A stretch of DNA of 44,510 nucleotides from Enterobacteria phage mEp460. The stretch's first letter is position 1, and each line of letters begins with the position of its first letter. Position numbers and translations under genes: made by a program. Below the pieces are notes generated by a model. That model searched no databases. It saw only the letters and a program-made list of their open reading frames with translations, and was not told the origin of the DNA. This document shows positions 22,001-42,348 of the stretch, one piece after another. Location: the sequence record NC_019716.1. One strand, written 5' to 3'.

Positions 22001-22694
22001 CACTATCAACAAGGATGAGGTTAATTCAACTGTTGATTTAACTCTTACAAAACAAACAGGGACTGGCAATCGTTTTGTTTTACAGAACTTAGGTAATACA
22101 GAACTATCATTTGCCGCAAAAGTATGGGGATCAAGTGATCGACAAAACGTTTTTGAGGTTGGAACGTCTGCTGCGTATCTGTTTTATGCGCAAAAAACGT
22201 CAGCAGGCCAGTTGTTTGATGTAAATGGCGCTATTAATTGCACAACGCTGAATCAGTCATCAGACCGCGACCTTAAAGACGATATTCTCGTTATCAGCGA
22301 CGCGACGAAAGCAATCCGTAAAATGAACGGATACACCTACACGCTCAGGGAAAACGGGATGCCTTATGCTGGCGTTATTGCACAGGAAGTAATGGAGGCG
22401 ATACCAGAAGCTGTAGGATCGTTTACTCATTACGGTGAAGAGTTGCAGGGACCAACGGTTGACGGCAATGAATTACGTGAAGAAACACGTTATCTGAATG
22501 TTGACTACGCCGCCGTGACGGGGTTACTTGTTCAGGTCGCCCGTGAAACAGATGGTCGCGTTACCGCGCTGGAAGAGGAAAACATAACGCTACGTAAAAA
22601 TCTGGCAACAGCAGGCACCCGGATCAGCACTCTGGAAAATCAGGTAAGCGAACTGGTTGCACTTGTCGGGCAGTTAACAGGAAGCGAACATTGA
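19092..22694 (+). CDS. Side tail fibre protein with Ala/Ser-rich repeat tract and C-terminal intramolecular chaperone (peptidase S74-like) domain
   Basis: About 1200 aa; repeat tract at roughly 19440-20140 (KSSETNA-type repeats); C-terminal SDRDLKDDI...KMNGYTYTLRENG motif plus terminal coiled coil; ORF-track GTG start 19086, ATG 19092 preferred. Confidence 0.8.
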   Translation: MAVKISGVLKDGAGKPVQNCTIQLKAKRNSTTVVVNTVASENPDEAGRYSMDVEYGQYSVILLVEGFPPSHAGTITVYEDSRPGSLNDFLGAMTEDDARPEALRRFELMVEEVAHNASAVAQNTAAAKKSASDAGTSAREAATHATDAAGSARAASTSAGQAASSAQSASSSAGTASTKATEASKSAAAAESSKSAAATSAGAAKTSETNAAASQLSAATSASTATTKASEAATSARDAAASKEAAKSSETNASSSASSAASSATAAGNSAKAAKTSETNADNSAQAAADSQTASANSATAAKKSETNAKNSEAAAKSSETNAKASETNAKSSETNAAKSAADALNYRNQAQGIVGTSIGLGASPRDCPDISGNPSGYIGFMRIMSNAKGFPSIASGESSLTGFISQVDGTPAYTGVFQGWATRSLYTYRWNPTTGPQWTRHARKNEVDRLDQWNSETWLYNHDKSMRLGLTGSTWGCYSDTQKKWIPLDVSHGGTGANSLDDAKTNLQIPEGGLTKAMTLNAPGGAVDGKYYPVIIDTSAMNGSGAMLCPVEIKTAGGPASNPLNSNSFFGFIRCGGWSDVRDVAYGSFVCYEKNELGILCIKASQRDYAQHVAFYIHKSAFPVVVQTGYKAKVKVPTEDYVIGDNGVRYKFGVSTSTEDNDKNFVKNVLDFTGGEHGFYSNLPFRQGVSERIALTNGLSFDKNFTVTIPIFVNNGQIKATQSFTAYGTDASNRTFVSQRLQSEGGPVVDQTELRAANASGEIIVRDINNSGNSKFFNFNLDGTFSSYQGLVVHTGQNWSTQHTDNVNKFKPIAGSAGGPDGTMVVGGFHAQFSGNYVTQFAGRNSKFWARSFEAGVDKGWKRLLTVDDLNSSTDLAVRSLTTSNPVKSGGGRIDVLGSTSDYSKMDCFVRGFDSTGNSLAWALGSSVGVSKMLSLKNFFSGAEILLNGNDGAVQLKTGAVNGAKAQALTINKDEVNSTVDLTLTKQTGTGNRFVLQNLGNTELSFAAKVWGSSDRQNVFEVGTSAAYLFYAQKTSAGQLFDVNGAINCTTLNQSSDRDLKDDILVISDATKAIRKMNGYTYTLRENGMPYAGVIAQEVMEAIPEAVGSFTHYGEELQGPTVDGNELREETRYLNVDYAAVTGLLVQVARETDGRVTALEEENITLRKNLATAGTRISTLENQVSELVALVGQLTGSEH

Positions 22695-22730
22695 TATCCT
22701 TCAAGCCCTGAAGGAGGCTGTTCCTGGTAC

Positions 22731-22877
22731 GTTCAGACTGTTGTTGAGCTGGAAATCGCAACGGAGGAAGAAACTTCGTTGCTGGAAGTCTGGAAAAAGT
22801 ATCGGGTGTTGCTGAACCGTGTTGATACATCAACTGCACCTGATATTGAGTGGCTGGAAGAACCAAACACAATGTAA
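22731..22877 (+). pseudogene. 3' remnant of a tail fibre assembly (tfa) gene, no start codon, in frame with stf after its stop
   Basis: Translation [48 protein letters not shown] resembles Tfa C-termini; reading frame continues directly from the stf TGA at 22692-22694. Confidence 0.5.
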
Positions 22878-22880
22878 GCG

Positions 22881-22924
22881 AAAAAGAAAAACCGCAGACA
22901 CGACGTATGCAGGACGTGCTGCGG
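22881..22924 (-). terminator. Intrinsic terminator for the leftward dinI/int transcript
   Basis: Imperfect hairpin CCGCAGACACG...CGTGCTGCGG with a T-run on the minus strand (plus-strand AAAAAGAAAA). Confidence 0.45.
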
Positions 22925-22992
22925 TTGGCTGGTGAGCTTTCGATAGTGCGAGTATTGAATGATTTCCAGCCGTTACCGATTTTACGTGTTAA

Positions 22993-23241
22993 TTAGTGAA
23001 CAAACCACTCGTCAGCAGATTCCCAGGTATCTTTCAGAGTCTCCTGAACAAAAGTTTTTGCAGAATCCTTATCTGCGGTGCGTGTAACAGAAAGGCCATC
23101 GTTGCTGGTGGCTTTTACGATCACCTCTACATCGTCATAACGTTTACTGATGCGTCGGGTTAATTCTTCCTTTAACGCATCCACAGCACCGGTTGGCATT
23201 TTAGTCATTTTTTCTTTGGCTATGCAGATTTCAATACGCAT
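22993..23241 (-). CDS. DinI-like SOS-inducible protein
   Basis: 82 aa with DinI family pattern (MRIE...ELTRRI...[14 protein letters not shown]). Confidence 0.8.
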
Positions 23242-23254
23242 AAAAGTCCCTCTA

Positions 23255-23274
23255 TACTGTGTTTGTATACAGTA
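23255..23274. promoter_or_regulatory. LexA (SOS) box 1 upstream of the dinI-like gene
   Basis: TACTGTGTTTGTATACAGTA matches the CTGT-N8-ACAG consensus, 14 nt upstream of the dinI-like start. Confidence 0.65.
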
Positions 23275-23282
23275 TTATTTTT

Positions 23283-23302
23283 AACTGTATGGATAAACAG
23301 TG
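23283..23302. promoter_or_regulatory. LexA (SOS) box 2
   Basis: AACTGTATGGATAAACAGTG, a second CTGT-N8-ACAG motif 9 bp from box 1, abutting the int stop codon. Confidence 0.5.
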
Positions 23303-24400
23303 TCAAGAGGTCTTATTTCTGCTCCTTTGGAGCTCTTCAAAACGATTATGTAAAGATTTCGGATACAGTTCGGTATATACCTGCCATAGCACGTTTAATG
23401 AACGATGCCCTGTAACCTGGGCGACTTCCTCAATACTAAAACCAGCCTCAAATAAGCGACTTGCCCCTCCTCTACGCAAATCATGGTATCGCAGATCTTT
23501 AATACCTAATTTGCTTCTTACCCTCTGGAATCCCGCAGTAACAGAAGTGCTGTTATATGGAAAAATGAATTCCGATTTTTGGGGCTGTCGTTGGGCGATA
23601 TCCCAGGCTTCCCCAAGCAAGGCTACTTTCATGTGGTTGCCTTCCTTTTTGCGTGGATCTTTCCTGTCTCTTACGAGTATAGATTTTTGTTCCTGGTCGA
23701 GATCTTCCCATCGTAACCGGCATACTTCTCCGATTCGCATACAGGACCACACAGAAAATTTGAGGATATCAACGAACGGAATTTTTGAGCATTTATGAGT
23801 AGATCGTTGTTGAAGGCCTTCAATGAGCATGTCCAGTTCATCAGATGCTGGTCTACGATTACGACGGTTTGATTTTCCAATCAAACCAAGTTTAAGTAGA
23901 TATGGACGAGCACTTTTCGCCGGGTTTGATGTGTAATTAATTCCGTATACAGGTTTGGCCGCATCCAGAACACTGCCAAGATAACTAACATCGTGGCTGA
24001 CTGTTGCTGGACCTGCGCCAGCGTTGTTTCTTAGCCTGCAATGTTCAATTACGTCATTTTCTGTCAGTTCAGATAGTTTGATCGCGGAGATGTCACTATC
24101 CATAAGCAGTTCTAGCACATATCTTTTAGTACGGCCTGCTTTACCTCCGGCATTTGGGTCATTTAAATATTTGTGTAGTAAGTCACGGACTGTAAGTCCG
24201 TCAACTGCATTTGATGATGGAATGCCATATAGATCTAATTCCATCACTTTCTGTGTGCCCCATGTTTTGGCATGAGCATGTTTAGGGAATGTTTTGCTTT
24301 CCCTGTAAGTGATAACACCTTTTTCATTGATAATCACATTACAGCGATAGCGTGGTGTGCCAACGGATTTTAGTCGTTTCTCTATGTTATAGTACGCCAT
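23303..24400 (-). CDS. int: Tyrosine integrase (site-specific recombinase)
   Basis: 365 aa; C-terminal catalytic-type region (HDLRRGGASRL...GHRSLNVLWQVY) typical of phage integrases. Confidence 0.9.
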   Translation of the reverse strand: MAYYNIEKRLKSVGTPRYRCNVIINEKGVITYRESKTFPKHAHAKTWGTQKVMELDLYGIPSSNAVDGLTVRDLLHKYLNDPNAGGKAGRTKRYVLELLMDSDISAIKLSELTENDVIEHCRLRNNAGAGPATVSHDVSYLGSVLDAAKPVYGINYTSNPAKSARPYLLKLGLIGKSNRRNRRPASDELDMLIEGLQQRSTHKCSKIPFVDILKFSVWSCMRIGEVCRLRWEDLDQEQKSILVRDRKDPRKKEGNHMKVALLGEAWDIAQRQPQKSEFIFPYNSTSVTAGFQRVRSKLGIKDLRYHDLRRGGASRLFEAGFSIEEVAQVTGHRSLNVLWQVYTELYPKSLHNRFEELQRSRNKTS

Positions 24401-24701
24401 TACACGACCTCGTTATTTCGGGTTCCCATAAAACGTGGGAACCTGTGCGGGAACCTAACGCGAGAAAAATAGCCTGAAATGTTCAAAAATGCACGATAAT
24501 CCTGAAATACAGAAAACTAATCAAACCAGCGTGATGCCTGAAAAAACTGGCGCTTACTGGAGTTCTCGGTTTAGCATTGCTCCTATGCTCGATAGGATGT
24601 ACCGTTTTTGAAAAACAAATAGTTATATACTTTGTGGGAGCCTATTGGGAACCCGGCGTTTTCATTTCAAGGTGTAATCCATACGCGGCTTAAGAATGAG
24701 A

Positions 24702-24736: not shown

Positions 24737-25273
24737 ATGATGCTTACCCTGGACGAGATAGGTCAATCAGTACGTAACAATATCCAGTTGATTATTGATC
24801 ATGTCGGCTTACCTCTTGCTGTTGGTCCGCTCAGTGATGATGATTACAAGATTCTGTGTGGTGGCTATGGTGAGCTTGAATGGGACTATGCGTTAAGTAC
24901 CTATGGCAACTCCAGAGAAAAGTATGAGTTCTGCATAAAACTTGTTCAGCAAGGTCGGGTTCAGGGAATACCATCAGGAGCAGCAATTTGTGTTTATGGG
25001 GTTGAAGAAAACATCTTTCGTATCCATATGATCGAAAGGTTTTCTAGAGAAGATGAATCTCACCCATTGAAAGGGCGCATGGTTTTACTCACTCTTATGA
25101 GTGCTTTTATATTTTGTAAAGCTGTTGAATGTAAAGTTGTCCACATTGTAGAGCCAGTACCAGAACTGGTGCAGTATTACGAGTCTTTTGGTTTCCGCAT
25201 GGAACAGTGCGGTTATGTGATGTCGGCAGTCATTGATGAGCTGCAGGATATCTTTCTTAAATTTGCTCAGTAG
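24737..25273 (+). CDS. GNAT-fold (acetyltransferase-like) protein, putative; moron
   Basis: 178 aa; C-terminal YYESFGF motif and preceding hydrophobic strand suggest a GNAT fold; opposite strand to int and xis; GC visibly lower than neighbours. Confidence 0.45.
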   Translation: MMLTLDEIGQSVRNNIQLIIDHVGLPLAVGPLSDDDYKILCGGYGELEWDYALSTYGNSREKYEFCIKLVQQGRVQGIPSGAAICVYGVEENIFRIHMIERFSREDESHPLKGRMVLLTLMSAFIFCKAVECKVVHIVEPVPELVQYYESFGFRMEQCGYVMSAVIDELQDIFLKFAQ

Positions 25274-31505: not shown

Positions 31506-32198
31506 TTAATTGTGTCGCTTAAGGGTTTGTGACTGACTGATTAAGACCTTTCCAAAGACCATAAACCGATGTTCGTTTTCGCTGGTAATTCCCCATTCGC
31601 GGTAAATCTGATTATCAGAAATTACCAGCAGTTTATCAGGTATCATTTGCAGTCGTTTGACGTAAATTTTATCATCAAAACCAAATACATATATACCATC
31701 CCCATCAAACTGATTGATACTGATATCAACGAAGATGAGATCTCCTGGCTCAATGGTTGGACACATACTGTCCCCACGAACGTTGATAACTTTAATGTGA
31801 TTGGCTGGTCGTCCGCCAAACATCGATACAGCATTATCAGTTCTGTATTCAATGGCATGAATCACATCAATGACATCACCGCCCTGGATAAGGCCATTTC
31901 CCGCACTGGCACTGACATCCAGCATTTCAATACGGAATACATCCTTCACCTGCGCAACATCCTCACTAATACTGTTTTTACATACAGTATTACTTTTGAC
32001 GTCTGAGGTAAAGAGATCAGCAATATCAACACCTAAGCTCCTGGCAATATTACTCAGGGCTTGTTCAGTGAATTGTTTCTGCTTACCTGTTTCCAGGCGC
32101 GAGATATTCGCCGCATCCACTCCTATTGCTTCAGCGAGATCGGCGATTTTCATGTTCTTCGCCTGGCGAAGTTGTCTGACTCGGTTTCCTATGTTCAT
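31506..32198 (-). CDS. cI: CI-type prophage repressor (HTH_XRE plus S24 LexA-like autopeptidase)
   Basis: N-terminal HTH (VRQLRQAKNMKIADLAEAIGV), C-terminal GDSM catalytic Ser and VKRL Lys motifs. Confidence 0.9.
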   Translation of the reverse strand: MNIGNRVRQLRQAKNMKIADLAEAIGVDAANISRLETGKQKQFTEQALSNIARSLGVDIADLFTSDVKSNTVCKNSISEDVAQVKDVFRIEMLDVSASAGNGLIQGGDVIDVIHAIEYRTDNAVSMFGGRPANHIKVINVRGDSMCPTIEPGDLIFVDISINQFDGDGIYVFGFDDKIYVKRLQMIPDKLLVISDNQIYREWGITSENEHRFMVFGKVLISQSQTLKRHN

Positions 32199-32556: not shown

Positions 32557-33100
32557 GCATCACTGGAAAGTGGAAAAACAACCTGAGTGGTACGTGAAAG
32601 CTGTCAGAAAAACTATCGCGGCATTGCCTGGGGGTTACGCTGAAGCTGCTGACTGGCTGGATGTAACAGAGAACGCTTTATTCAACCGCCTTCGTGCAGA
32701 TGGCGATCAGATTTTCCCGCTGGGATGGGCAATGGTTTTACAGCGCGCGGCTGGCACTCACTACATTGCGGATGCTGTCGCACAGTCTGCCGGTGGGGTG
32801 TTCGTATCGCTTCCTGAAATTGAGGAAGTAGAGAACGCCGATATAAACCAGCGCCTGCTGGAAGTCATCGAACAGATCGGGAATTACTCAAAGCAGATTC
32901 GTTCGGCAATCGAAGATGGGGTCGTGGAGCCACACGAGCAGACAGCAATTAATGATGAGTTGTATCTGTCAATTTCGAAGCTCCAGGAGCATGCAGCACT
33001 GGTCTACAAAATCTTCTGCGCTCCAGAAAAGAGTGACGCCCGCGAGTGTGCAGCTCCGGGCGTCGTGGCGTTTTGTGTCTGTGGAGAAACTAACGCATGA
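32549..33100 (+). CDS. YdaT-family / CII-position regulatory protein, putative
   Basis: 183 aa immediately after cro with overlapping start; family assignment from recalled sequence pattern. Confidence 0.5.
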   Translation: MGKHHWKVEKQPEWYVKAVRKTIAALPGGYAEAADWLDVTENALFNRLRADGDQIFPLGWAMVLQRAAGTHYIADAVAQSAGGVFVSLPEIEEVENADINQRLLEVIEQIGNYSKQIRSAIEDGVVEPHEQTAINDELYLSISKLQEHAALVYKIFCAPEKSDARECAAPGVVAFCVCGETNA

Positions 33101-33245
33101 ACAGTTTAACGGCAAATAACCGTTTGTCGCAACAGCTGGTGGTCAGTGTCGCTGAACACCTGTTGTTACGGCATGAATGCAGATTACCAAATCACTTGGC
33201 TGTAAGTAACCACAGAGAACTTTACCTGACTGTGGGGGGCGAGTT

Positions 33246-33425
33246 GTGCAGGAACTTAACCGCTGGTTTCGTGACGGAAGAGGGCTTTATGTCCATGTTA
33301 TTCGTTGGGAGCCAGAAACACAGCGCGTTATCTATCTTCGCAAAGACTACCCGCATGAGTGCTTTAGTCCTTTGTGGAAATTCAGGCGTGATTTTGTTGA
33401 GTGTGAAGGACCACCAGCACATTGA
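33246..33425 (+). CDS. Small hypothetical protein (59 aa, GTG start)
   Basis: Protein-like translation (...RWFRDGRGLYVHVIRWEPETQRVIYLRKDYPHECFSPLWKFRRDFVECEGPPAH); GGGGGCGAG SD-like upstream. Confidence 0.3.
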   Translation: MQELNRWFRDGRGLYVHVIRWEPETQRVIYLRKDYPHECFSPLWKFRRDFVECEGPPAH

Positions 33426-33510
33426 TTCTGCCATTCCGGGACGTTACACTGTTCAGGCACCTTATAAAGCGGGTGCCGGGCGTGGAAACCCGGAATTCAC
33501 CAAAGCGCAC

Positions 33511-33534
33511 AACCGCGCTCTTGCGGTTTTTTTG
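33511..33534 (+). terminator. Intrinsic terminator in the early-right operon (tR1-like)
   Basis: AACCGC-GCTCTT-GCGGTT hairpin followed by TTTTTTT. Confidence 0.6.
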
Positions 33535-33702
33535 TGTAATGAGCAGCATTACGCCCAAATTATGGTGGGGCGTGCAGGGCCAACTTCGGTTGGGCCGGGT
33601 TCTTTGGTGACCGGTATTTCCACCCCTGTACGTCTCACCACCAATAAGGTCGTGGAAAGCCTTGGTGGTGAGTTATTAAAAATCACCAAAGAGGCTGCCA
33701 TC

Positions 33703-34248
33703 ATGGCTACGATCCCAACCCTCACTCAACCTGAAATTGCCATCGTTGATGGTCAGGCTGTTACTTCATCCCTGGCTGTTGCCAACTTCTTCTCCAAACG
33801 TCATGACGATGTACTGAAAAAGATCCGCACGCTTGAATGCTCTGCATCATTCACTTCCCGCAATTTTTCGGTGAGTGATTACACCGATTGCACAGGCCGC
33901 AAACTACCTTGCTATCAAATAACCCGCGACGGCTTTGCGTTTCTTGCTATGGGTTTCACGGGTAAACGTGCTGCCCAGTTCAAAGAGGCATACATCAATG
34001 CCTTTAACCAGATGGAGAAACAGCTTTCAAATCCCTCTGTACTGAGCGACGTTGCACATAACGCCAGCGTTCTCTATTCCTACATTTCATCAATTCATCA
34101 GGTCTGGCTGCAGCAGCTTTATCCTATGTTGGCAAAAGCCGAATCTCCGCTGGCTGTTAGCTTGTATGACTATATTAATGATGCTTCGGCACTGGCCTGC
34201 CTCATAAATTTGTCGCTGAACCCTTCAGAGGTAAGGGGGCGCAAATGA
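33703..34248 (+). CDS. Rha-family phage regulatory protein
   Basis: 181 aa; AAAGAGG SD 8 nt upstream; Rha-type pattern (VDGQAVTSSL.VA..F.KRHDDVLKKI...YQITRDGFAFLAMGFTGKRAAQFKEAYINAF). Confidence 0.7.
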   Translation: MATIPTLTQPEIAIVDGQAVTSSLAVANFFSKRHDDVLKKIRTLECSASFTSRNFSVSDYTDCTGRKLPCYQITRDGFAFLAMGFTGKRAAQFKEAYINAFNQMEKQLSNPSVLSDVAHNASVLYSYISSIHQVWLQQLYPMLAKAESPLAVSLYDYINDASALACLINLSLNPSEVRGRK

Positions 34249-37156: not shown

Positions 37157-37966
37157 ATGAATAATCTGATGGTCATTGATGGTATTGAAGTTCGTCGTGA
37201 TGCTTATGGGCGTTACAGCCTGAACGATCTGCATCGCGCAGCAGTAGCATCTGGTGCAAATGCCAGAACCAAGGAGCCGGGAAAGTTTCTTTCCAGCCAA
37301 CAAACTGTTGAGCTTGTTCATGAATTGACCAACACCCAGAATTTGGGTGTTGACCCGGTGAGTGTGATTCATGGGGGAAATGAACGGGGAACGTATGTCT
37401 GCAAGGAACTGGTGTATGCCTATGCAATGTGGATCAGCCCGTCATTCCATCTGAAGGTGATCCGTACTTTCGATATGGTAACCAGCGCACCGGAAAAATT
37501 ATCCGGACAGGCTGCTGACAAGATGCAGGCTGGCGTGATCCTGCTGGACTTTATGCGCCGGGAGTTAAACCTGTCTAACTCTTCAGTGCTTGGTGCCTGT
37601 CAGAAACTCCAGGAGGCTGTTGGCTTACCGAATCTGGCACCGCGCTATGCCATTGATGCTCCTGCTGATGCACACGATGGCTCAAGTCGCCCGACACTGT
37701 CACTGAGTGCACTGCTGAAACAGTATGGTATACGCCTGACAGCTAATCAGGCATATCACCAGATGGTGAAACTGGGGATCGTCGAGCAGCGCGAACGATA
37801 CAGCCGTACCGCGATTAACAACATCAAAAAATTCTGGTCGCTGACAGCGAAAGGTTGCATGTTCGGCAAGAACATCACCAGTCCCGCAAATCCGCGCGAG
37901 ACGCAGCCGCATTTCTTCGAATCCCGATTCCCTGAGCTGTTAAAGCTGCTCGATACCGTTCATTGA
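37157..37966 (+). CDS. KilA-N domain protein (antirepressor-like)
   Basis: N-terminal KilA-N pattern (IDGIEVRRDAYGRYSLNDLHRAA...GTYVCKELVYAYAMWISPSFHLKVIRTFD); start at ATG 37157. Confidence 0.6.
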   Translation: MNNLMVIDGIEVRRDAYGRYSLNDLHRAAVASGANARTKEPGKFLSSQQTVELVHELTNTQNLGVDPVSVIHGGNERGTYVCKELVYAYAMWISPSFHLKVIRTFDMVTSAPEKLSGQAADKMQAGVILLDFMRRELNLSNSSVLGACQKLQEAVGLPNLAPRYAIDAPADAHDGSSRPTLSLSALLKQYGIRLTANQAYHQMVKLGIVEQRERYSRTAINNIKKFWSLTAKGCMFGKNITSPANPRETQPHFFESRFPELLKLLDTVH

Positions 37967-37967
37967 G

Positions 37968-38963
37968 GTGACCGTGAGAGCACTACTGACCCCTGAAATT
38001 GCCCCGCGTATGGGGATCGTATTGTTCAGGCCAGGTTCAGAGCTGATGCCCCTGTTTATGCAGGGGCGTGTCCTGCTGGAGCCTGAGCCGGAGCGTTATT
38101 CATCTTTCGCCAGTGGTGCCGTTCCGGCGGCATCACAACCGCTGGCGGATGATCCTGCCGTTCGGGCCGTGTTCCGCAATGAGGCAGTGATCCGTCGTGC
38201 TGGTGGCGTGGAATGTCTTGAAAGCTGGTTACTTCGTGAAAAAGGCTGCCAGTGGCCTCATTCCGACTGGCACAGCGAGAACATGACCACAATGCGACAC
38301 GCTCCGGGTGCAATCCGTCTGTGCTGGCACTGCGATAACCAGCTGCGCGATCAGTTCACGGAACGGCTGGAATCAATGGCAACGGATAACTGTGCCCGCT
38401 GGGTGTTGTCTGTTGTGCGTCGGGATCTCGGTTTTGATGACAGTCACGTTGTGACAATGCCTGAACTGTGCTGGTGGCTGATTCGTAATGATCTGGCGGA
38501 TGCCTTACCGGAAAGTGCAGCCCGTAAGGCACTGAGATTACCGAAGCCTGTTGTGCCGTCTGTTACCCGGGAAAGTGACCTTGTGCCTTCGGTTCCTGCC
38601 ACCAGCATCATCCAGGATAAGGCGAAAAAGGTGCTGGCGCTGAAAGTGGATCCGGAGTCGCCGGAGTCTTTTATGTTACGCCCAAAACGTCGCCGCTGGG
38701 TTAATGAAAAGTACACGCGCTGGGTTAAGACACAGCCGTGTGCATGTTGTGGAAAGCCCGCTGATGATCCCCACCACCTGATAGGTCACGGTCAGGGTGG
38801 AATGGGAACAAAAGCGCATGACCTTTTTGTGTTGCCTTTGTGCAGAAAGCATCACGACGAGCTGCATGCGGATACCGTGGCATTTGAAGAGAAGTATGGC
38901 TCCCAGCTGGAGCTGATATTTCGTTTTATCGATCGTGCGCTGGCAATTGGCGTATTGGCGTAA
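37968..38963 (+). CDS. DUF968-type protein with C-terminal HNH/Zn-finger-like motif
   Basis: 331 aa (GTG start in track); C-terminal CACCGKPADDPHHL.GHG.GGMGTKAHD...PLCRKHHDELH cluster. Confidence 0.5.
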   Translation: MTVRALLTPEIAPRMGIVLFRPGSELMPLFMQGRVLLEPEPERYSSFASGAVPAASQPLADDPAVRAVFRNEAVIRRAGGVECLESWLLREKGCQWPHSDWHSENMTTMRHAPGAIRLCWHCDNQLRDQFTERLESMATDNCARWVLSVVRRDLGFDDSHVVTMPELCWWLIRNDLADALPESAARKALRLPKPVVPSVTRESDLVPSVPATSIIQDKAKKVLALKVDPESPESFMLRPKRRRWVNEKYTRWVKTQPCACCGKPADDPHHLIGHGQGGMGTKAHDLFVLPLCRKHHDELHADTVAFEEKYGSQLELIFRFIDRALAIGVLA

Positions 38964-38976
38964 GTGGAGAACGAGC

Positions 38977-39729
38977 ATGAACCTTGAAGCCTTACCAAAA
39001 TATTACTCCCCAAAATCTCCAAAATTGAGCGATGACGCACCGGCGACAGGCTCAGGTGGTTTAACGATTACGGATGTGATGGCTGCGCAGGGGATGGTGC
39101 AGTCGAAAGCACCGCTTGGGTTTGCCTTATTCCTGGCAAAAGTTGGTGTTCAGGATCCTCAATTTGCGATTGAAGGTCTGCTCAATTACGCGATGGCACT
39201 GGATAACCCGACATTGAACAAATTGAGTGAAGAAACCCGGTTACAGATCATCCCTTACCTTGTGAATTTTGCCTTTGCTGATTATTCCAGGTCTGCGGCA
39301 AGTAAGGCTCGCTGTGAGCATTGTGCTGGTACTGGATTTCATAATGTATTGCGCGAAGTGGTGAAACACTCCAGAAGCGGGGAATCTGTTATCAAGGAAG
39401 AGTGGGTGAAGGAACTATGTCAGCATTGTCATGGTAAGGGAGAAGTCAGCACAGCGTGCAGAGGGTGTAAGGGTAAAGGTATTGTCCTGGATGAAAAAAG
39501 GACCCGGCTTCATGGCACGCCTGTTTATAAGATTTGTGGGCGTTGCAATGGAAACCGGTTTAGCCGTTTACCAACCACACTGGCGCGGCATCATGTCCAG
39601 AAGCTGGTACCAGACCTGACGGATTATCAGTGGTACAAAGGATATGCAGATGTCATTGATAAACTGGTTACAAAGTGCTGGCAGGAAGAAGCATATGCAG
39701 AGATACAATTGAGAAAGGTGACAAGATAA
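38977..39729 (+). CDS. Late antitermination protein Q
   Basis: About 250 aa with Cys-rich Zn-binding segment (CEHCAGTG...CQHCHGKGE...CRGCKGKG...CGRCNG); followed by promoter and terminator. Confidence 0.75.
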   Translation: MNLEALPKYYSPKSPKLSDDAPATGSGGLTITDVMAAQGMVQSKAPLGFALFLAKVGVQDPQFAIEGLLNYAMALDNPTLNKLSEETRLQIIPYLVNFAFADYSRSAASKARCEHCAGTGFHNVLREVVKHSRSGESVIKEEWVKELCQHCHGKGEVSTACRGCKGKGIVLDEKRTRLHGTPVYKICGRCNGNRFSRLPTTLARHHVQKLVPDLTDYQWYKGYADVIDKLVTKCWQEEAYAEIQLRKVTR

Positions 39730-41012: not shown

Positions 41013-42065
41013 ATGAAAAATACTGTAAAAATAAACAGTGCTGATTTAATCAACGCTGATTGCCTGCATTTTATTCAGTCCCTGCCTGATGATTCCATTG
41101 ACCTGATTGTTACCGATCCGCCGTACTTCAAGGTGAAACCCAACGGCTGGGACAATCAGTGGAAAGGGGACGAAGATTACCTTAAGTGGCTGGACCACTG
41201 TCTGGCCCAGTTCTGGCGGGTGTTAAAACCTGCCGGAAGCCTTTACCTGTTCTGTGGGCATCGCCTGGCATCTGATATTGAGATCATGATGCGTGAACGT
41301 TTCAACGTGCTTAACCATATCATCTGGGCGAAGCCGTCCGGACGTTGGAATGGGTGTAATAAAGAAAGTCTGCGCGCATATTTTCCTGCCACAGAGCGCG
41401 TTCTGTTTGCTGAACATTACCAGGGGCCATATCGTGGCAAAAGTGACGGCTATGCGGCAAAAGAAAGGGAACTCAAACAGCACATAATGGCACCGCTGAT
41501 ATCGTATTTCAGGGATGCTCGTGCCGAACTGGGTATAACGGCAAAACAAATTGCCGAAGCCACAGGTAAGAAAAATATGGTTTCCCACTGGTTTGGTGCC
41601 AGTCAGTGGCAGTTGCCGAATGAGGCTGACTATCGGAAGTTACAGGCACTGTTTTCCCGTATAGCGGCAGAGAAGTTTCAGGAACAACAACTGGAACAAC
41701 CACACCACCAGCTGGTGGCATCTTATGATTCACTGAATCGCAAATATTCTGAATTGCTGGATGAGTTTAAATCTCTCCGGCGCTATTTCTCCGTATCAGT
41801 CTCCGTGCCTTATACCGATGTCTGGATGCATAAACCCGTTCAGTTCTACCCGGGTAAACATCCGTGTGAGAAACCGGCGGATATGCTCAGGCAAATAATC
41901 AATGCCAGTAGTCGACCCGGTGATCTGGTTGCTGATTTTTTTATGGGATCCGGTTCCACAATAAAAGCAGCAATGGCGCTGGGGCGTCGGGCCTTAGGTG
42001 TTGAGCTTGAGTCAGAGCGGTTTAACCAGACAGTGAAAGAGATAAACGAGCTGGTGGGGAAATAA
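41013..42065 (+). CDS. Beta-class DNA methyltransferase (N6-adenine or N4-cytosine), orphan
   Basis: DPPY catalytic motif N-terminal (LIVTDPPYF), AdoMet motif C-terminal (DFFMGSGST); no partner restriction gene. Confidence 0.85.
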
Positions 42066-42132
42066 TCTGGTGGCCACGTCAGGTGGCCTTTTTATTTCCA
42101 TTACACAGCACCCGCATCTGCGAGGTGGGGTT

Positions 42133-42348
42133 ATGAAATCCATGGATAAGTTAACAACGGGTGTCGCCTATGGCACCTCAGCAGGTAGTGCCGGGTACTG
42201 GTTTTTACAGTTGCTCGATAAAGTCACGCCCTCACAGTGGGCGGCAATAGGTGTGCTGGGTAGTCTGGTATTTGGCCTGCTGACGTACCTGACAAACCTT
42301 TATTTCAAGATTAAAGAAGACAAGCGTAAGGCTGCACGGGGAGAGTAA
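42133..42348 (+). CDS. Class II holin, phage 21 S-like pinholin with dual-start motif
   Basis: [26 protein letters not shown]... with two TMDs and charged C-terminus; GAGGTGG SD; M1/M4 dual start. Confidence 0.75.

Follow-up and report, generated by a model that had tools for sequence, protein, structure and literature searches.

LexA control of prophage-borne dinI genes is already known from the Gifsy phages of Salmonella. The dinI homologues of Gifsy-1, -2 and -3 lie behind a LexA box, and a lexA3 allele blocks induction (Lemire et al. 2011, PMC3121763). In these phages dinI stands at the head of a dinI-antirepressor-irsA operon, which triggers induction; non-polar deletions of dinI had no measurable effect on induction (PMC3121763), so that any benefit of DinI to a phage is questionable. 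A survey of the Salmonella SOS response gave each Gifsy dinI gene one box, 19 nt from the ATG, with an induction of 5- to 23-fold, and found two boxes at lexA and three at recN (PMC8072944).

Other described arrangements are also close to the locus considered here. Chromosomal dinI of E. coli (b1061) has a LexA-repressed sigma-70 promoter with a single operator, ACCTGTATAAATAACCAGTA, located 39 nt 5' of the ATG. In the P2-like phages, a LexA-repressed prophage gene includes a DinI-like part that is fused to or follows an antirepressor, as in Tum of phage 186 and the split tum-dinI of PSP3 and Fels-2. The DinI c0943 of a P2-like prophage in CFT073 showed the strongest induction of all SOS genes in one array study (PMC4546592). 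The E. coli phage cassette that we describe, with its tandem operators, adds to these known systems. We found no description in the open-access literature of tandem LexA boxes at an E. coli prophage dinI, or of LexA boxes inside cI.

The stretch of DNA analysed, 44,510 nt long and referred to below as the window, represents a lambdoid E. coli phage that is mEp460-like or PhiR55-like. Its dinI-like gene, encoding 82 aa (22993-23241, minus strand), lies between the tail-fibre genes and int, which encodes a dusA-type tyrosine integrase of 365 aa (23303-24400, minus strand; Pfam Phage_integrase, E=3.5e-20) and is the upstream neighbour outside the cassette. Beside int there is a 5' fragment of dusA, an ORF at 24489-24611 on the plus strand that encodes the DusA N-terminus and diverges from int across a gap at 24401-24488. 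Such a divergent fragment is the hallmark of dusA-specific integration, where the host gene has its 5' end replaced by the phage. In ETEC H10407, an identical int-dinI segment is found at a prophage end next to dusA, with 88 bp from int to dusA, in combination with a quite different baseplate-type tail module. Given this position in H10407, int-dinI is the dusA integration end of the phage.

The initial annotation had placed two CTGT-N8-ACAG motifs between the start of the dinI-like gene (23241) and the int stop codon (23303-23305), and both are exact. Box 1 reads TACTGTGTTTGTATACAGTA on the plus strand (23255-23274) and has a perfect core at 23257-23272, while box 2 reads AACTGTATGGATAAACAGTG (plus strand, 23283-23302) with its perfect core at 23285-23300. 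The N8 centres, GTTTGTAT in box 1 and ATGGATAA in box 2, are A+T-rich, and 13 nt separate the end of box 1 from the dinI ATG. Box 2 was said to end at the int stop codon; indeed, the last base of its 20-mer immediately adjoins the TGA (23305-23303). A spacing of 9 bp had been given for the pair and needs correction: the boxes are separated by 8 bp when measured between the 20-mers and by 12 bp between the 16-mer cores, and their centres are 28 bp apart.

Scoring with a LexA weight matrix had been suggested as a check on both sites. We built a heterology-index (HI) matrix from 18 E. coli LexA boxes (PMC3009722, Table 4); all HI values given here come from this matrix and are not identical to the published Lewis indices. 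Under leave-one-out scoring, the 18 training sites range from HI 0.6 to 12.8. With the symmetrised matrix, box 1 scores 4.9 and box 2 scores 6.3, both within the range of proven E. coli operators; in gene orientation the values are 2.8 and 5.8, respectively. The right half of box 2, ATCCATACAG, is the same as in the sulA and ftsK operators. Over the whole window exactly four sites have an HI of 6.3 or below, and the fifth best is at 15.0. The CTGT-N8-ACAG pattern is observed five times against an expectation of 0.75. Its fifth match, gCTGTAAGTAACCACAGa at 33200-33215, lies inside an ORF, has a poor 20-nt score and is not among the best-scoring sites, the weakest of those listed being at about 15-16; it is probably a chance occurrence. 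Motif, matrix score and overlap with the core promoter together support boxes 1 and 2 as E. coli-type LexA operators, to which LexA is predicted to bind.

The relation of the boxes to the predicted promoter is seen when the minus strand is read as CTC-TTGACA-CTGTTTATCCATACAGTT-AAAAAT-AA-TACTGTATACAAACACAGTA-TA-GAGGGA-CTTTT-ATG. The elements interlock: a perfect -35 hexamer, box 2 as the spacer, the -10 hexamer, and then box 1. The -35 hexamer TTGACA (23301-23306) is the point at which homology starts across unrelated upstream contexts, and its bases TGA (23305-23303) double as the integrase stop codon. Operator 2, CACTGTTTATCCATACAGTT on the gene strand (23283-23302), takes in the final two bases of the -35 hexamer together with the entire 18-nt spacer. 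The -10 hexamer AAAAAT (23277-23282) follows, and operator 1, TACTGTATACAAACACAGTA on the gene strand (23255-23274), begins 2 nt past it and spans the predicted transcription start, at about 23268-23272 on the minus strand. A Shine-Dalgarno sequence, GAGGGA (23247-23252, minus strand), can be read directly 5 nt from the ATG. The promoter scan matched 10 of the 12 hexamer positions. Its weaknesses are a -10 element with only 4 of 6 matches and a spacer of 18 nt. Moreover, the scan returned three sites in this region compared with 4.0 expected from shuffled sequences; since this count is no better than that of the shuffles, the promoter call rests on position and conservation.

Downstream of the gene, RNA folding yields a 3' untranslated region (3'UTR) of about 100 nt. 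A conserved segment (22927-22992, minus strand) contains the hairpin GGCUGG...CCAGCC with a conserved loop of 37 nt, and it is followed by an intrinsic terminator (22881-22926, minus strand), a G+C-rich hairpin and then UUUUUCUUUUU. Homology to other phages stops within this terminator, at 22886-22904. From the dinI stop codon to the end of the terminator there are only about 110 nt, and no Gifsy-style antirepressor ORF is present 3' of dinI. The best-supported reading of this anatomy is a monocistronic dinI transcript made from the predicted promoter. The dinI-antirepressor model of the Gifsy phages was considered for the cassette and is ruled out by the terminator after dinI and the lack of a downstream ORF.

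The cassette nevertheless resembles the Gifsy loci in several respects: a DinI homologue carried by a prophage, a promoter of its own, a consensus LexA box near the ATG, and the end of another transcription unit upstream. Induction by DNA damage was shown for Gifsy and is predicted for the cassette. The differences are equally plain. The Gifsy dinI genes have one box, sit in the nin region after the replication genes and belong to an operon, whereas the cassette has two boxes, occupies a position between tail-fibre genes and int (or att) and appears monocistronic. The cassette terminator lies about 100 nt past the dinI stop, where the Gifsy-type phages mEp237, SEN34 and PHB10 have an ORF of 78-102 aa. 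The DinI proteins of the two types are only about 40-50% identical. We therefore class the cassette as a predicted LexA-controlled prophage dinI that lacks two defining features of the Gifsy operon, namely the antirepressor and the nin location.

To what extent the cassette is a unit of its own can be judged from its occurrence in other phages. A search of genome contigs with the single DinI protein gave four near-identical loci, while a search of viral contigs gave 80 loci that are 99-100% identical, which we used for context and variants; more diverged homologues came from tblastn of phage records. In 61 of 61 close loci, the boxes lie at -61 and -33 from the ATG. These loci fall into three unrelated upstream classes, with the int 3' end, a sequence beginning CCAAAATGCCCC or a sequence beginning AGAACATGATCAG, and they are common from TTGACA onward. 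Two further upstream sequences occur in CP-1639 and PhiR12_2, giving at least five contexts overall. In the Stx2c phages, 2H10, PhiR63_1 and CP-1639, the matches span just 22886/22904 to 23306/7, with the terminator at one end and the first T of the -35 hexamer at the other. The cassette stands beside ssrA in CP-1639 and about 220 nt from the yecE attR repeat in several Stx phages. Its G+C content is 42%, compared with 51% for the window.

With its predicted promoter and terminator, sharp homology edges, varied contexts and deviant base composition, the segment from 22881 to 23306 (minus strand, about 425 bp) has the attributes of a self-contained moron. The initial annotation had described such a moron as carried next to the integration module. 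It does adjoin int here, but the contact is incidental, as the same cassette occurs elsewhere without int; given at least five upstream contexts, contact with int is peculiar to the dusA-integrating phages. Of 5426 complete E. coli genomes, at least 1408 (about a quarter) carry the cassette in full; some O157:H7 strains have as many as nine copies, full or partial, and the 77-nt promoter alone was found in at least 1164 genomes. Carriers include ETEC H10407, O104:H4 and O157:H7, and the product is listed as WP_001217553.

Conservation of the operators bears on whether both of them work. The CTGT and ACAG half-sites of both boxes (16 positions) and the -10 hexamer do not vary in any of 23 distinct promoter variants, although the sequences compared are close kin and the invariance is weaker evidence than it appears. 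Substitutions affect the outer bases of the 20-mers, the middle of box 2, the AATAAT between the boxes and the -35 hexamer. In PhiR12_2, where DinI is 71% identical at the protein level, the promoter is nearly identical. Stx1_699 and Stx2_yecE, with DinI proteins 93-95% identical, have two boxes that are weaker (HI about 10) but arranged in the same way, and BP-4795 (DinI 60% identical) has one box (10.2) at the cutoff used of HI<12. A single box is found at K-12 chromosomal dinI, in a Klebsiella relative (68% protein identity) and at the Gifsy-type nin-region dinI genes of mEp237, SEN34, FSL SP-016, PHB10, two Klebsiella phages and one Aeromonas phage. Since one box suffices for all of these single-box genes, one operator might do the work in the cassette as well, with the other redundant or left over and with regulation as in single-box dinI. 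The Salmonella chromosomal dinI, whose second 'box' is very weak (HI 17.6), would fit such a case. We consider this improbable for the cassette: both of its boxes are strong (HI 4.9 and 6.3), their half-sites do not vary across the 23 variants, and both are still recognisable in the diverged cassettes of Stx1_699 and Stx2_yecE.

The boxes might instead act mainly on int, either through LexA as a roadblock to int readthrough or through an antisense transcript into the int 3' end, which would couple the integrase to the SOS response. Box 2 abuts the int stop codon, there is no intrinsic terminator between int and dinI, and many dusA-integrated prophages share an identical int-dinI junction, among them the one with the quite different tail module. 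We regard this as very unlikely, because the cassette with both boxes occurs in at least four other contexts that have no int upstream (the ssrA end of CP-1639, the yecE attR of Stx phages, Stx2c_2409 and PhiR12_2), and because the promoter scan detected no plus-strand (antisense) promoter between the boxes. In the int context, however, a roadblock to int readthrough could arise as a by-product, given that no terminator separates int from dinI. Next to no weight falls on the idea that the palindromes are due to chance or serve another protein, for instance the CI repressor of the phage or the integrase at its arm sites. The region of the boxes is A+T-rich (29.5% G+C) and close to the integration module, as this idea would have it, but in 400 random windows of 44.5 kb (first-order Markov) not one site reached an HI of 8 or below. 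Furthermore, the cI-cro operator region is without CTGT-N8-ACAG, and the boxes stay with dinI whether its upstream neighbour is the int 3' end or either of two unrelated intergenic sequences. We thus favour a LexA-repressed, SOS-inducible dinI moron with two operators, one at the promoter spacer and one at the start site, and hold this reading to be highly probable. The SOS regulation put forward in the initial annotation is borne out to this extent: it agrees with the sequence and its matrix scores, with the geometry of the promoter and with the conservation across phages, and has a precedent in Gifsy-1, -2 and -3 (PMC3121763, PMC8072944).

The product itself is readily assigned to the DinI family. 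The Pfam DinI profile PF06183 matches over all of its 63 positions (1-63) with E=1.1e-19 and 70.9 bits against a cutoff of 24.2, and E. coli DinI (PDB 1GHH) matches residues 1-81 with E=3.7e-13. Identity to K-12 DinI is 46%, and the C-terminal acidic helix is kept, with TWESADEWF corresponding to TWESADDWF in 1GHH. The gene was initially called a RecA modulator, a label based on homology, namely this identity and the retained helix. The phage DinI probably binds RecA filaments. It shares with chromosomal E. coli dinI the protein family, the TWESAD(D/E)WF helix and, by prediction, a LexA-repressed sigma-70 promoter; the phage version differs in having a second operator and in being mobile.

From the operator positions and the protein family, we infer how the cassette would operate. 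As long as the lysogen is undamaged, LexA dimers of the host would occupy both operators and exclude RNA polymerase from the sigma-70 promoter; occupancy of either operator should be enough for this. Upon DNA damage, RecA filaments would stimulate LexA self-cleavage and the promoter would open, giving a monocistronic dinI mRNA predicted to start within operator 1 and to end at the intrinsic terminator. The 82-aa DinI homologue may then bind RecA filaments and tune RecA co-protease activity, and hence the SOS response. As the CI repressor of this phage is of the self-cleaving S24 type (Peptidase_S24), DinI could also tune the cleavage of the phage's own repressor. Two good operators would be expected to lower basal expression and to make induction later or steeper than at a single-operator chromosomal or Gifsy-type dinI.

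More than one LexA box per promoter is also found at other SOS promoters, including those of lexA, recN and colicin genes, and the cassette differs from these in spacing. Same-face cooperativity has been proposed for the lexA operator pair, which is 21 bp apart. The 28 bp between the centres of the cassette boxes amount to about 2.7 helical turns, so that the operators would lie on different faces of the helix, a geometry that does not imply cooperative binding. Box positions in Salmonella (PMC8072944) imply a spacing of about 21 bp at lexA and spacings of 18 and 22 bp at recN, against 28 bp in the cassette, where the -10 hexamer lies between the boxes. Colicin-type boxes overlap, at about 15 bp centre to centre, as they do in the P2-like tum-dinI promoter of CFT073, whereas the cassette boxes are separate. 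At this CFT073 locus, that of c0943 (positions 37612-37646 of locus L191), two overlapping colicin-like boxes with HI 4.4 and 10.4 are followed by a small Tum-like ORF and a DinI family gene. A copy of the cassette had been considered for c0943 and is ruled out, the locus being of the P2-like tum-dinI type. Like the genes of 186, PSP3 and Fels-2, the cassette is a prophage gene with a DinI-like part and predicted LexA repression, but it has no antirepressor partner and resides in a phage with a self-cleaving CI. It represents a third prophage dinI arrangement, in which the two operators are separate, an antirepressor is absent and the gene sits at the end of the prophage.

The 3'UTR of the cassette is conserved as well. 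Its first ~75 nt are 94-97% identical among cassettes whose coding sequences are 90-97% identical. An orphan copy, about 96% identical and unannotated, lies between ykgJ and ecpE in nearly all E. coli, including K-12 derivatives (positions 2501-2648 of locus L192), and the dinI coding remnant beside it has decayed. A near-universal E. coli match that could be taken for chromosomal dinI is in fact this 150-nt orphan of the dinI 3' end and 3'UTR. Rfam contained no known RNA family matching the dinI leader or the 3'UTR. The Klebsiella DinR RNA offers an analogue for a functional RNA from a dinI 3'UTR (PMC10907235), and by this analogy the 3'UTR of the cassette may be a functional RNA.

The only two other strong LexA boxes in the window lie inside genes, and both are conserved as DNA in related phages of other genera. 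The best box in the window, TACTGTTTTTACATACAGTA at 31970-31989 with HI 3.3, is inside the cI ORF (31506-32198, minus strand). It encodes N70-I77 in the variable linker of CI, and of these eight residues only T71, V72 and S76, which are specified by the half-sites, are invariant. The box is kept in 80 of 80 close relatives in IMG/VR, a viral-contig search with a CI alignment having returned near-identical CI loci only. Diverged CI homologues of Salmonella 118970_sal3, Klebsiella phage 1 LV-2017, Citrobacter phiNP and Stx2a_WGPS2 also keep the box at the same position while the linker protein varies, with HI 5.5-5.9 in the homologues from Salmonella, Klebsiella and Citrobacter phages. A weak promoter-like sequence on the cI sense strand, TTTACC-17-TACTGT, overlaps the box. 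The second intragenic box, TACTGTAAAAATAAACAGTG at 41021-41040 with HI 5.4, occupies codons 3-10, at the very beginning of the ORF for an N6/N4 DNA methylase (41013-42065, plus strand), which has a Q-like antiterminator ORF (38935-39729) on one side and a P21-type holin (42070-42348) on the other. This box is kept in phiNP, in phiP27 and in the N15-like Klebsiella phage phiKO2 (68% nucleotide identity). The methylase and cI boxes use the same codon solution, N-T-V-x-x-N-S.

These boxes raise the possibility that the dinI cassette is one arm of a phage-borne LexA regulon that includes the cI and methylase boxes, with the dinI 3'UTR as an SOS-induced regulatory RNA by analogy with Klebsiella DinR. 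We put this forward tentatively, as a rather doubtful extension of the two-operator reading. If LexA does bind the cI and methylase boxes, the lysogeny switch and the late region would come under direct control of the host SOS repressor, with DinI feeding back on RecA. The cI, methylase and 3'UTR observations are more unusual than the dinI boxes themselves.

The window holds other elements of potential regulatory or cargo character. Rfam matches above the gathering score were obtained for isrK (67 bits; 33457-33533, plus strand) and C4 antisense RNA (83.6 bits; 33558-33645, plus strand), both within or just upstream of an ORF with Ash and Rha domains (33097-34248). This region resembles a P1/P7-like antirepressor module under antisense control; the same phage has a cleavable CI as well. 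A match to Rfam IS009 (RF02111) at 22634-22834 (plus strand) is sub-threshold yet significant, with 91.7 bits against a gathering score of 117 and E=5e-21, and falls in an apparent truncated tail-fibre-assembly region between the gene for a 1202-aa tail fibre and the dinI terminator. Near the attachment region, an ORF of 178 aa (24737-25273, plus strand) has no Pfam match and may be further cargo.

The cassette is very common prophage cargo in E. coli, and its regulation, as we read it, is what a specialist would expect. We predict that it reacts directly to DNA damage and to SOS-triggering antibiotics, and its product could alter RecA activity and hence the induction thresholds of prophages and Shiga-toxin phages. 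With one operator in the promoter spacer and another at the start site, the cassette would provide a clean natural test of how operator number sets the timing of the SOS response.
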